In this document: positions 25,190 through 46,386 of the stretch, in pieces | Position numbering within the stretch: the first letter of the stretch is position 1 | Layout: each line of letters starts with the position of its first letter | Source of the DNA: Minisyncoccia bacterium | Lineage (GTDB): Bacteria > Patescibacteriota > Minisyncoccia > UBA6257 | Direction of reading: 5' to 3' | Length of the DNA: 50,069 bases | Assembly (NCBI GenBank): GCA_049969555.1 | Contig: JBMFOQ010000002.1 | Coordinates: 1 to 50,069 of the forward strand | Position numbers and translations under genes: made by a program | Notes under the pieces: generated by a model | What the model was told of the DNA's origin: nothing | Databases searched by the model: none | Seen by the model: only the letters and a program-made list of their open reading frames with translations

Positions 25190-25605
25190 GTAAGAAAGCA
25201 TTTGTTGAAATTATTCCCGACATTACAAAAATAGGCGAAATGGTAGGTGTGAAATTTGTTCTTCCAACAGGTGAGGAACTTATTTTTGAGATTTGTAGAA
25301 AATTATCTAATGGAGTAGAAATACTGACAGTGAAAAAAGTTAATGATTTTTTTCTGGAAGATAGTGTTTTGTTTCAGAAATTAAAGAAAAAAGCAATACA
25401 TCTATTAATCACTAATCCTCCTGACTTCTCATGGCTCAAATGTCCATTTTGTAATTCTATTCCTGATGAAATTTTTGATTTGTTAAAAGCAAGGAGGGTA
25501 AAAGAGATTGCAGGGCGTCTTGTAATTAAATGTCCTTATTGTGGGCGTTATTATAAGATTCCCCCCTCTCCTAAAGATTTTTTAGACTATGATATCATAT
25601 TTTAG
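25180..25605 (+). CDS. Hypothetical zinc-ribbon protein (islet gene 3)
   Basis: AGGAGG SD; CPFC...CPYC pairs. Confidence 0.7.
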   Translation: MSIGKKAFVEIIPDITKIGEMVGVKFVLPTGEELIFEICRKLSNGVEILTVKKVNDFFLEDSVLFQKLKKKAIHLLITNPPDFSWLKCPFCNSIPDEIFDLLKARRVKEIAGRLVIKCPYCGRYYKIPPSPKDFLDYDIIF

Positions 25606-25654
25606 ACAAAGATTTTTTAGACTATGATATCATATTTTAGACTATGATATCATA
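25573..25654. repeat. Exact 35-bp tandem duplication with three copies of the palindrome TATGATATCATA
   Basis: AAAGATTTTTTAGACTATGATATCATATTTTAGAC at 25573-25607 and 25608-25642, then TATGATATCATA. Confidence 0.92.
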
Positions 25655-38289: not shown

Positions 38290-38292
38290 AAA

Positions 38293-38511
38293 TTATTTGG
38301 TAGTTTTTTTAACCTCTTTATTTAGTTCTTTTAAAAGTTTTTTCATATCTATATTGTAAGCCTTGCAAACTTCTTTAATAGTTAAATGCTGAATTTCAAA
38401 AATAGCAAAAGGGCAGCTAAGGCAAGGAACATTATATTTTGCGAGGACTTTTAGATAATGCTTGTTATTAAAAAGTTCTCCCAGGGCTGTTTTTTCTGTA
38501 ATTTTTTTCAT
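38293..38511 (-). CDS. DUF1858-like small CxxC protein
   Basis: PCLSCP...TIKEVC motif; own promoter TTGACG-17-TAAAAT at 38565-38537. Confidence 0.7.
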   Translation of the reverse strand: MKKITEKTALGELFNNKHYLKVLAKYNVPCLSCPFAIFEIQHLTIKEVCKAYNIDMKKLLKELNKEVKKTTK

Positions 38512-38569
38512 AAAAATTATTTGTTATTTTATTCAAATTTTATCAGTTAATTTTAAAAACGTCAAAAAT

Positions 38570-38737
38570 AAAAAATGCTGCGCTTTTTCCACCTTGCGGT
38601 TTCAAAAGCGCAGCGTGGTGGTTCTTAGTCGGCTTTTCAGCGTTCTAAGGACCACCATGCTGTCTCTTAGTTACCTTGCGGCTCATAAGGGACAGCGTGC
38701 TACTGCTTAGTTGCCTTTCGGCTTCTAAGCAGCAGCA
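38570..38737 (-). ncRNA. Putative novel structured ncRNA of four tandem GNRA-capped hairpins
   Basis: Hairpins at 38698-38737, 38659-38696, 38615-38658 and 38577-38614; TTGATT-16-TATAAT promoter (38770-38743); 3' U6 tail. Confidence 0.75.
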
Positions 38738-38777
38738 ATTTAATTATAAGCCAAATTTTTTTTAAATCAAGAGTTTA

Positions 38778-38797
38778 TGTGGATAACTTGTGGATAA
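38778..38797. promoter_or_regulatory. Two tandem consensus DnaA boxes
   Basis: TGTGGATAA at 38778-38786 and 38789-38797 (TTATCCACA on the minus strand). Confidence 0.7.
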
Positions 38798-38893
38798 CTA
38801 AAAAGCAACAGAGAAATTCCGACAATTGAAGCCAAAAAGATGGTAAAAGTAATAGCGATTTGATTTAAAGTAGCCAAAATATCTTAAAGTTAT

Positions 38894-44514: not shown

Positions 44515-45270
44515 TTATTTTATTATTTTTAGATATCTTAAATGATTAAATTGATCTTTAAAAAATTGGTAGTTTGAATAACCCGCTTTTTTTAATAATT
44601 TTTCGAGGAATGTTTTTTGAGAAGAATCAAATTCCAAAAAAATAACCCCGTTTTGCTTTAAATGGTATTTTGCTTGCTGAAGAAATTTTTTTATAAAATA
44701 TAAACCATCTTTTTGAGCAAATATTGCTTTTCGGGGTTCGTATAAAAGAACTGATTTTTGAACCTTTTTAACATTTTTTATTGAAACATAAGGGGGATTG
44801 GCAAAGATAAAATCAAATTTTTCTTTAATGTTAGAAAAGATATCTGATTTAACTATCTTATATTTTTTACTGTTAATTTTATTTAATTTTAAATTTAATT
44901 TAATTTGGTTAATGAATTTTGTATACTTTTCTGCAAAAACAACCTTACTTTTTGGTAAATGTTTTAAAAGAGCAGCTCCAATACATCCAGAACCGCTAAA
45001 AATATCTAAAATATTTAATTTTTGATTATTGGAAAGACGTTGAATTTCCCTTATCGCTTTTTCAACCCAGTATTCAGTCTCTTCTCTTGGAATTAAAGGT
45101 TTAAAAGACAAATCTATATGACAATCCAAAAATTTTCTAAATCCTATTACATAATCTAAAGGTTCGCCCTTTTTAATCCGTTCAATATCTTTAAAATACT
45201 CAGACGTTTTCTTATTGTGATATTTCTCTTCTAATAACCATTTTTTTGCTCTTTTTAAATAATATTTCAT
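44515..45270 (-). CDS. prmC: Release-factor glutamine methyltransferase (HemK)
   Basis: GEPLDYVIG, LIPREETE, LDIFSGSGCIG, ANPPY and YEP motifs. Confidence 0.88.
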   Translation of the reverse strand: MKYYLKRAKKWLLEEKYHNKKTSEYFKDIERIKKGEPLDYVIGFRKFLDCHIDLSFKPLIPREETEYWVEKAIREIQRLSNNQKLNILDIFSGSGCIGAALLKHLPKSKVVFAEKYTKFINQIKLNLKLNKINSKKYKIVKSDIFSNIKEKFDFIFANPPYVSIKNVKKVQKSVLLYEPRKAIFAQKDGLYFIKKFLQQAKYHLKQNGVIFLEFDSSQKTFLEKLLKKAGYSNYQFFKDQFNHLRYLKIIK

Positions 45271-45289
45271 ACTTTTTAATTAAATTATT

Positions 45290-45470
45290 AATTATCGACT
45301 TCAATTATCGACTTCACTTCAATTATCAACTTCAATTATCGACTTTTCAATTATCGACACTTTTCAATTATCGACTTCGTAAGTCGTTAACGACTTACGA
45401 AGTCGATAATTATCGAAGTCGATAATTATATTAACGACTTATATATTAACGACTTACGAAGTCGATAATT
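45290..45470. repeat. 13-mer (AATTATCGACTTC) repeat array with a central perfect 46-bp palindrome
   Basis: Six direct copies at 45290-45378 (some with small indels or substitutions), palindrome at 45366-45411, and three inverted copies (GAAGTCGATAATT) up to 45470. Confidence 0.92.
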
Positions 45471-45550
45471 ATAACTTGCTTGACAAAAAAATAATTGATA
45501 CAATTAAATTAGTACATAAACAATTAAATATAAAATAAAGGGAGGTGTGA

Positions 45551-46054
45551 ATGAAAAAAGATAGCATTGATACTCACCATATTATACCGCTAAGTATCGG
45601 AGGAAGTAATGAAGAGAAAAACAAGATTAGAGTAAATAAAATAAAACATAGCGTATATCACTCACTATTTAATAATTGGCATCCCTCATATATTATAAGG
45701 TTTCTTTTACAAGAAGTATTAAAAGAATACTTCGAGATAAACTTAGACTTAGAAAAAGAACCACTTCGCAGTTTTTTAGAAAATTTTGATATAAAGATGA
45801 AAGAATTAATGGATGATAAATCTTATTATAAACATTTTGAAGAGCAAGAAAAAATTCGTCAAATTGAGATTAATTTTAAAAACAAGAAATTAGAAAATAA
45901 GTTGAAGGATTTATTAGATGCTTGGGAACAACCATTAAACTGGCGACCTACAATAATTATTAAAAAAATGATGGAATGGTTTAAATGCGACGAATATGAC
46001 AAAGAAATGAATGAGGGATTAGATGAGATTCTAAAAATAATAGGAAAGGAATAA
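45551..46054 (+). CDS. HNH-motif (beta-beta-alpha-Me) putative nuclease
   Basis: DTHHIIPLSIGGSNEEKN...H..YH motif; GGAGGTG SD; the only credible plus-strand gene after 25.7 kb. Confidence 0.7.
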   Translation: MKKDSIDTHHIIPLSIGGSNEEKNKIRVNKIKHSVYHSLFNNWHPSYIIRFLLQEVLKEYFEINLDLEKEPLRSFLENFDIKMKELMDDKSYYKHFEEQEKIRQIEINFKNKKLENKLKDLLDAWEQPLNWRPTIIIKKMMEWFKCDEYDKEMNEGLDEILKIIGKE

Positions 46055-46068
46055 GGTAATTACAAACT

Positions 46069-46094
46069 AAAGGGGCAATAATTTGCCCCTTTTT
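46069..46094. terminator. Intrinsic terminator
   Basis: AAAGGGGCAA-TAAT-TTGCCCCTTTTT. Confidence 0.8.
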
Positions 46095-46107: not shown

Positions 46108-46386
46108 TTATTTTGTTTTGTTTGCTTCGTAATTATGCCAAGCTTTAACTGCTTGGGGAGCCATTATCTCTAATTCTCCTAAAATTTTATCTCTTAATTC
46201 TAAAGCAGTTACTTTTTCTTGTCCTTCGTACATTTCCATTATTTTTTCGCTAATATAATCAGCCAATTCTTCTTGTTTTAATTCATCCAAACCTGCTTCG
46301 CGGCACGCCCCTCTGACCGCTTTTTTAATTTTTTCAATGTCAAAAGGTTCTTCGACGCCGCTTTTTTTAATGACTGTTGTAACCAT
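46108..46386 (-). CDS. Stand-alone ATP-cone domain protein
   Basis: VIKKSGVEEPFDIEKIKKAV...VTALELRDKILGEL. Confidence 0.85.
   Translation of the reverse strand: MVTTVIKKSGVEEPFDIEKIKKAVRGACREAGLDELKQEELADYISEKIMEMYEGQEKVTALELRDKILGELEIMAPQAVKAWHNYEANKTK

Follow-up and report, generated by a model that had tools for sequence, protein, structure and literature searches.

We examined a 50,069-nucleotide stretch of DNA (hereafter the window; contig JBMFOQ010000002.1 of assembly GCA_049969555.1) from a Minisyncoccia bacterium, and report here on a repeat block located near one end of it. The block occupies the intergenic region between a prmC-like methyltransferase gene and a gene for a small HNH-like protein, which point away from each other, and an ATP-cone gene lies beyond the latter. 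Positions are those of the window, which is contig C2 of the genome called G000 below (525,708 bp in 50 contigs, ~30% G+C), and unit numbers are as in the assembly. Repetitive extragenic palindromic (REP) sequences and REP doublets forming hairpins (REPINs) are short, hairpin-forming DNAs that are recognized and moved in trans by a REP-associated tyrosine transposase (RAYT), a single-strand HUH tyrosine transposase. We consider it likely that the block is a local cluster, similar to a bacterial interspersed mosaic element (BIME), of a REP/REPIN-type repeat that belongs to a REP-RAYT system in a candidate phyla radiation (CPR) genome of the Paceibacteria type. The array adjoins the HNH-like gene but is no part of it, and we do not regard the two as tied because the core of the array also occurs at other intergenic loci of G000.

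The repeated unit is AATTATCGACTTC. With up to two mismatches allowed it has 11 matches in the window, nine of them in 45290-45470, compared with 2.58 +/- 1.58 in shuffled sequences (0 of 100 reach 11). Forward units start at 45290, 45303, 45321, 45334 and 45366, with a slipped forward copy, AATTATCGACACTTTTC, starting at 45349, and reverse units are found at 45399-45411, 45415-45427 and 45458-45470. Each half-unit begins with the head AATTAT, continues with the left stem arm CGACTT and ends in a C, and slippage variants in the left run include an extra ACTTC, CGACTTTTC and CGACACTTTTC. The center of the block is a perfect palindrome whose 23-nt arms (45366-45388 and 45389-45411) are 100% complementary and directly abut. 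It holds two inverted small hairpins, CGACTT-CGT-AAGTCG (45372-45386) and CGACTT-ACG-AAGTCG (45391-45405), which are joined by TTAA and capped by the heads AATTAT and ATAATT. On the right side, GAAGTCGATAATT is present at 45415-45427 and 45458-45470, two copies of TATATTAACGACTTA lie within 45427-45456, and the right half of the palindrome recurs at 45446-45470 with a third small hairpin (45450-45464). The basic unit is a hairpin with a 6-bp stem and a 3-nt loop (CGACTT-NNN-AAGTCG), preceded by a head of the form (A/T)TT(A/C/T)T.

An earlier sequence-only reading of this DNA had listed the repeats, their slippage variants, the 46-bp palindrome and the inverted copies, and each is present where that reading placed it. 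Its view that the block can fold back on itself is upheld by a predicted folding energy of -41.6 kcal/mol for positions 45280-45480 as single-stranded DNA (shuffled sequences -17.4 +/- 3.0, z = -8.1, 0 of 200 equal). It had also reported no unique spacers; the units indeed abut directly, which rules out a CRISPR array. No Rfam family reaches its gathering score anywhere in the window. A DnaA-box reading of TTATCGACA at 45351 was discarded, as this is one of 17 one-mismatch matches in the window where 12.2 are expected.

Matches to the AATTATCGACTTC 13-mer with at most one mismatch number 20 in G000 (10 forward and 10 reverse, on C1, C2, C3, C8, C10, C11 and C16), compared with 3 + 3 for a reversed-pattern control. 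When clusters are defined by at least three core hexamers (CGACTT or AAGTCG), the genome yields 10. The 34-nt core of the palindrome, CGACTTCGTAAGTCGTTAACGACTTACGAAGTCG, is exact at six loci (C2:45372, C3:38432, C3:39706, C3:40741, C8:2336 and C16:10596), and core variants at C1, C7, C8:9761 and C10 account for the remaining clusters. All CGACTT-N3-AAGTCG hairpins of the genome (n=17) fall within eight clusters, and the C1 and C7 clusters carry core hexamers and no such hairpin. Every one of the 10 clusters is located between open reading frames (ORFs) or beside tRNA genes; in two cases the cluster reaches a stop codon. Their neighbors are functionally unrelated, and include L19 with tRNA-Leu, an HtrA-like protease, nusA, pilin-like genes, the 16S rRNA region and a P-type-ATPase-like gene. 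The family is therefore short, hairpin-forming, multi-copy and strictly extragenic, in the manner of REPs and REPINs, and it brackets a single RAYT-like gene.

Extra half-units are present in six clusters, where those left of the core are always direct and those right of it always inverted. Each locus has heads of its own: AATTAT in the window, AATTCT on C3, ATATTCT on C8 and C16, TTTTCT on C10 and AATTAA at C8:9761. Because each locus has its own head flavor, we infer that amplification occurred in place after arrival. The identical 34-nt cores argue for either recent spread or sequence constraint. Inspection of the junctions by eye revealed no conserved insertion target adjoining the units.

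Two exact core copies bracket the RAYT-like gene at C3:39865-40538, and a third copy is located one gene upstream, just past tRNA-Leu. The two flanks of the gene have 44 nt of palindrome in common. RAYT genes are defined by inverted REPs on their flanks, according to excerpts of PMC2817692, and this gene has the same REP-like sequence on both sides. It is the only Y1_Tnp gene found in G000 (Pfam 25.5 bits, cut-off 23), which gives one gene, in two pieces, for 10 repeat loci. The Y1_Tnp match is to the C-terminal 162 aa, which carry PNHYHLL, and the N-terminal 66 aa (MKNEITYYHILNRGVDKRKIF...) are encoded in a different frame. All of the relatives examined have a single open frame, and full-length ones are 225-250 aa. 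Their best NCBIfam model is REP_Tyr_transpos at 31-40 bits, with IS200 at 14 bits. The best PDB match to an AlphaFold model of the orthologue from genome G013 is 4er8_A, E. coli TnpAREP bound to a REP hairpin (E 4.4e-4, probability 1.00, root-mean-square deviation (rmsd) 3.6 over 146 columns), which suggests a TnpAREP-like fold for a model with a predicted local distance difference test score (pLDDT) of 65. The transposases of ISDra2, IS200 and IS608 are the next fold matches. An HUH motif (NHYH or NHFH) is present in 8 of 8 sequences that cover the region, as is a conserved YIHxNP downstream of it (YIHADP in one paralogue). By analogy with the Y115/N119 spacing given in excerpts of PMC3479197, the tyrosine of YIHxNP might be the catalytic residue.

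Evidence that hairpin and gene belong together also comes from relatives. The 34-nt core was found in none of 40 relatives searched, two same-genus genomes included. The RAYT-like gene is present in 8 of the 40, neither congener among them, and in 49 of 200 other genomes of the order, some of which have 2-4 copies. For 30 loci fetched from the 200-genome sample, the two 380-nt flanks of the gene were compared in either orientation. At 21 of these loci the left and right flanks have at least 17 nt in common, a number that rises to 26 for a threshold of 13 nt; the corresponding figures for cross-locus control pairs are 9 and 72 of 870. The stretch common to both flanks is each time a hairpin specific to the genome, such as GGACTT-GCG-AAGTCC or GGAAGTC-S-GACTTCC, and the hairpin and the RAYT-like gene change together across genomes. 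Dispersal is evident in G076 (22 REP loci with one RAYT match), G024 (six loci) and G064 (three loci and four variants).

Several further features of these genes were observed. A third copy of the flank hairpin lies in frame inside the RAYT-like gene at 18 of the 21 loci whose flank palindrome is at least 17 nt (L041-L066). It is located at nt 145-172 (aa 48-57), in a linker whose sequence varies (KEVGLPNI or DVRRPNI, for example). The G000 gene lacks this inner hairpin, and its frame break falls within that linker. In genome G038, two tandem RAYT-like paralogues (C1:6107-7560; L028/L032) have differing palindromes at their outer ends. The RAYT-like matches of G085, G173 and G060, which belong to family f7 of the order of G000, contain 2-4 in-frame stops, all TGA. 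The uvrB gene has one in-frame TGA in G085, two and one in G173, and none in G060 or G030. In part of family f7, TGA may be read as sense, or the genes may be broken.

The features of the window locus are collected in the table below.

Features at the repeat block and its surroundings (window positions)
Feature	Position	Strand	Basis or remark
prmC-like methyltransferase gene (neighbor)	44515..45270	-	MTS 61 bits; PrmC_N weak
Direct half-unit run, five units (the sixth is the left arm of the palindrome)	45290..45365	+	repeat search
Promoter-like TTGAAA-17-GATAAT inside the array, facing prmC	45322..45350	-	consensus match only, 10/12
Perfect 46-bp palindrome, REPIN-like doublet	45366..45411	.	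repeat and hairpin search; 34-nt core match genome-wide
Right-hand inverted units	45412..45470	-	repeat and hairpin search
HNH-like gene promoter TTGCTT-17-TACAAT	45476..45504	+	5 nt past the last unit; kept in array-free G002
Shine-Dalgarno sequence GGAGGTG	45541-45547	+	sequence reading
HNH-like gene, 167 aa (neighbor of array)	45551..46054	+	ORF, motif, predicted structure
Two-way terminator hairpin common to the HNH-like and ATP-cone genes	46069..46092	.	terminator scan
ATP-cone gene	46108-46386	-	

The window array is an insertion compared with G002, a same-genus genome recorded as a 'Candidatus Paceibacterota bacterium' metagenome-assembled genome (locus L033). The two have the gene order uvrA, uvrB, prmC (-), HNH-like (+), ATP-cone (-), ddl, murF and hydrolase in common. 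In G002, the spacer from prmC to the HNH-like gene is ~80 nt and holds TTGCTT-17-TACAAT and GGAGGTG without the array, and pairwise alignment leaves ~195 window bases (45271-45465) unmatched. Because synteny, promoter and Shine-Dalgarno sequence are kept without the array, we take G002 to be an empty site, which the sequence-only reading had proposed to look for in the interval from prmC to the ATP-cone gene. The promoter, Shine-Dalgarno sequence, ORF and terminator that it described are all present, and the promoter is the one kept in G002. Its TTGCTT matches 3/6 of the -35 consensus, and a consensus scan omits this promoter. L033 and G001, the other congener, likewise have the terminator hairpin after the ATP-cone gene. 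A second empty site is found upstream of nusA, where G002 keeps a TTGACT promoter without the C10 array; this comparison rests on G002, as the G001 spacer is mostly N in the fetched locus.

The slot that received the insert, which runs from the prmC start codon (45270) to the -35 box (45476), is ~10 nt in G002. The start codon is now 19 nt from the array, and the former upstream DNA of prmC has been displaced by ~195 bp. With the insert in so small a slot, prmC would therefore have to use a promoter inside or beyond the array.

The HNH-like protein has an N-terminal HNH-type beta-beta-alpha motif, DTHHIIP..GG..N..H..YH, followed by a helical domain. Pfam HNH models match it at 13.6-15.8 bits, all below cut-off (PF01844 weakly, at 15.0 bits with a cut-off of 21.4), and there is no match in NCBIfam. 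PHROGs gives only weak matches, the best of which is phrog_655 'homing endonuclease' (E 0.015). Across 10 family members, DTHH-I-P-S-GG-N-H-YH is invariant or nearly so. The family is small: two other proteins of near length were found among 5.8 billion clustered proteins, and there are seven full-length members at E <= 1e-10 among 1.84 billion representatives. A three-member profile also matches dozens of proteins of 70-110 aa over its first ~55 residues, and 3 of 15 of these short relatives scanned pass a Pfam HNH cut-off (P0013 with HNH_4 27.1 and HNH 22.5, P0015 with 21.9 and P0023 with 22.1). The predicted structure (pLDDT 81) consists of a beta-beta-alpha unit and then six helices. Foldseek returned nothing from PDB at E <= 1e-3, and the only resemblance is weak and local, to the HNH domains of Cas9 (5vgb_A, rmsd 2.6 over 49 columns). 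The protein is probably a small HNH-type nuclease with an uncharacterized helical domain. An internal echo that had been seen in it, NWHPSYII and NWRPTIII, looks like chance, since NNWHPS is invariant in the 10 family members and NWRPTIII is unconserved beyond a mostly kept W.

No paralogue of the HNH-like gene was found in G000, and the gene is patchy, being present in 2 of 40 relatives. In G001, nothing but the terminator hairpin separates the ATP-cone gene from prmC. Because this interval lacks the HNH-like gene, that gene too represents an insertion or deletion at the prmC/ATP-cone spot, independent of the array. The description of the gene as foreign-looking is thus half right: its patchiness and its absence from the G001 interval agree with it, and its presence at the same locus in congener G002 does not.

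Only their adjacency favors a link between array and HNH-like gene in which the nuclease owns the array as an operator or cleavage target, and we find such a link scarcely credible, as we do the related idea that the array is the remnant of a hairpin telomere or replication origin. Repeats are present at 0 of 2 loci of HNH homologues (L033 in G002 and L035 in G009, a genome of another genus where the gene has different neighbors), which is the outcome that the sequence-only reading had named as speaking against itself, and the palindrome occurs at nine other intergenic loci without an HNH gene. With regard to a telomere or origin, the element is present in multiple internal copies, two of which flank a RAYT-like HUH gene, and the only perfect DnaA boxes of the window are at 38778-38797, away from the array. 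No protelomerase gene adjoins the array, although a genome-wide search for one was not made. A third proposal, that the block is a snap-back synthesis scar, survives in part: duplication at the hairpin apex probably built the half-unit runs, but the block is an amplified REP-type element and not the scar of HNH integration. The general idea of a mobile-element origin therefore holds, and the three specific versions of it do not.

We favor a two-step history for a REP/REPIN-type cluster. The doublet would have arrived by RAYT-type single-strand cleavage and strand transfer, and its ends would then have been duplicated outward in place, such that half-units came to be stacked on each side. The half-units appear always to break at the hairpin apex, between CGACTTC and AATTAT, and all have the AATTAT flavor specific to this locus. 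The amplification might have been caused by RAYT strand transfer or by replication slippage at a stalled hairpin, and the HNH-like gene and prmC would be bystanders. Excerpts of PMC3333891 propose a two-step model for E. coli, transposition and then local amplification, and state that strand transfer by TnpAREP in vitro can 'assemble tandem BIME copies'. For E. coli TnpAREP, cleavage requires the 5' head and a CT dinucleotide, according to excerpts of PMC3479197.

Some of our observations weigh against a REP-RAYT system. Classical REPs typically exceed 100 copies (excerpts of PMC2817692), and the 526 kb of G000 contain 10 loci and 17 small hairpins. A conserved GTAG (or CGTC) head is described at the foot of REP hairpins (excerpts of PMC3733652 and PMC3479197), and the head here is (A/T)TT(A/C/T)T (AATTAT, AATTCT, AATTAA). 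The window block contains one inverted doublet and a further partial copy, and the remainder is made up of truncated half-units that are direct to the left and inverted to the right; such runs are not a classical BIME layout, and the account of their formation given above is a proposal. There is little dispersal in G046 (three loci), in G013 (two, in a 67% complete genome) and in G025 (one). The score of the protein lies below the NF047646 REP_Tyr_transpos cut-off of 80 bits, the pLDDT of the G013 orthologue model is moderate, and a search of PDB sequences with a RAYT-like profile returned only ISDra2 TnpA (E 0.02); the same search with a single orthologue sequence gave only a spurious match (E 0.35). 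Moreover, the frame of the G000 gene (L010:4866-5536) changes by one base in an A7G5 run (L010:5031-5042). This break could reflect a pseudogene, a homopolymer assembly error or slippage, and no intact RAYT-like enzyme is evident in G000 unless one of the latter two applies. Current activity is doubtful because the gene is frame-broken. Finally, a -35-like hexamer, paired with a good -10, starts 0-10 nt past the last unit at five loci (window 45476; L010:3507, 4751 and 5799; L013:3312).

The RAYT-like gene could instead be read as an ordinary insertion sequence (IS) of the IS200/IS605 type whose solo ends, similar to palindrome-associated transposable elements (PATEs) or miniature inverted-repeat transposable elements (MITEs), are the palindromes, selfish and short-lived. 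Transposition of single-stranded hairpins would be the mechanism in this case too, but the system would not be a domesticated REP-RAYT pair. In G013, G046 and G025 the hairpins are found almost only beside the gene, some genomes have 2-4 gene copies, the patchiness of the gene and its absence from two congeners fit a recent horizontal arrival, and the PDB match by sequence is ISDra2 TnpA. We nevertheless think this improbable, as the NCBIfam RAYT model scores 40 bits against 14 for IS200, the best fold match is TnpAREP (4er8_A), and G000 has one gene copy for 10 repeat loci. A typical IS has distinct left and right ends, but here a single gene has the identical palindrome on both sides, and solo palindromes are present elsewhere. 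The five -35-like hexamers, together with the resemblance of multiple direct and inverted half-sites to operator arrays, would suit regulator binding sites or a promoter module like an UP element. This we judge highly improbable, because the motif is absent from both congeners though the downstream promoters are conserved there, the hairpin covaries with the RAYT-like gene and brackets both sides of it, the downstream genes are unrelated in function, the units are private in flavor to each locus in a way that suggests local duplication, and promoter-like matches are not enriched across L010. The block is highly self-complementary and the assembly is in 50 contigs, as might be expected of a fold-back artefact of assembly or amplification. 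The chance of such an artefact is very remote, however, given that unique, syntenic sequence flanks the array left and right within its 50-kb contig, that the core was assembled at five other loci including both sides of the cognate gene, and that analogous elements occur in independent assemblies.

A wider possibility can be added to the REP-RAYT interpretation, one that we regard as rather unlikely. In minimal CPR genomes, REP hairpins might, besides being mobile DNA, take a functional part in gene expression, a gene with its own inner hairpin might be self-recognizing, and loss of the inner hairpin might have disabled the enzyme and frozen the repeats. A role in expression is suggested because, at the five loci, clusters fill the few bases up to the -35 box of the next gene. 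The regularity of this spacing could reflect the only permissive slot in tight intergenic DNA or a role in transcription. At L010 and L013, the sites have 10-11/12 consensus matches each, in AT-rich DNA, and L010 overall has 14 promoter-like sites where 11.4 are expected. Promoter and terminator scans flag the palindromes as terminator-like. If this possibility were correct, the clusters could serve as two-way terminators or insulators, half-unit runs could supply promoters, and TTGAAA-17-GATAAT would be a new promoter facing prmC.

Two other features of the window were noted. Two tandem copies of the perfect DnaA-box consensus, TGTGGATAA, with an 11-nt period are found at 38778-38799. They lie in a gap of ~600 bp without a long ORF (38290-38893), between a methyltransferase-like gene and uvrC, that has no Rfam match. 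In addition, a perfect 35-nt tandem duplication is present at 25573-25642, where two copies of AAAGATTTTTTAGACTATGATATCATATTTTAGAC each contain the small palindrome ATGATATCAT.

These findings remove a false lead, in that the palindrome is neither the target or operator of an HNH-like nuclease nor a telomere or origin, and they would place a REP-RAYT-type system in an ultra-small Patescibacteria genome. For annotation, arrays of this kind in CPR genomes would be recorded as REP clusters that are able to displace the upstream region of a neighboring gene. With ~10 loci, an empty site and congeners free of the system, G000 offers a tractable case for the study of repeat arrival, in-place amplification and promoter proximity. 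A full-text literature search found no description of REP-RAYT systems for Patescibacteria, the candidate phyla radiation or Parcubacteria, though supplements might list such genomes, and the excerpted main text of PMC6006769 mentions none of the three names. The present case adds a dispersed, locally amplified REP cluster with a syntenic empty site.

Among known systems, the E. coli REP/BIME-TnpAREP 'REPtron' (excerpts of PMC3333891 and PMC3479197; 4ER8) is similar in that a single HUH/Y1 gene is bracketed by repeats that are also scattered intergenically, the hairpin has a short conserved 5' head, and units are amplified locally in tandem. The G000-type protein differs from E. coli TnpAREP in its length (~225-250 aa), an extra N-terminal module of ~50 aa and a long C-terminal part. 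Whereas E. coli REPs have a GTAG head in the same excerpts, the head here is AT-rich and the stem is perfect and only 6 bp long. There are also ~10 loci rather than hundreds, and runs of truncated half-units rather than alternating whole REPs. The IS200/IS605 elements IS608 and ISDra2 have in common with the present system the Pfam Y1_Tnp domain and an HUH and tyrosine chemistry on single-stranded hairpins, but those are multi-copy, gene-carrying units with distinct ends, whereas one gene and many solo palindromes are found here. The REPIN-RAYT systems of Pseudomonas (excerpts of PMC3116915, PMC3337134 and PMC5581495) likewise feature an inverted REP doublet that acts as one long hairpin and a single-copy RAYT. 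Long vertical persistence is reported in those excerpts for Pseudomonas, whereas the system described here is absent from congeners. Compared with a Pseudomonas REPIN, the REPs of G000 form a tiny population and are joined by only 4 nt, which makes each doublet of the window type a perfect 46-bp palindrome.

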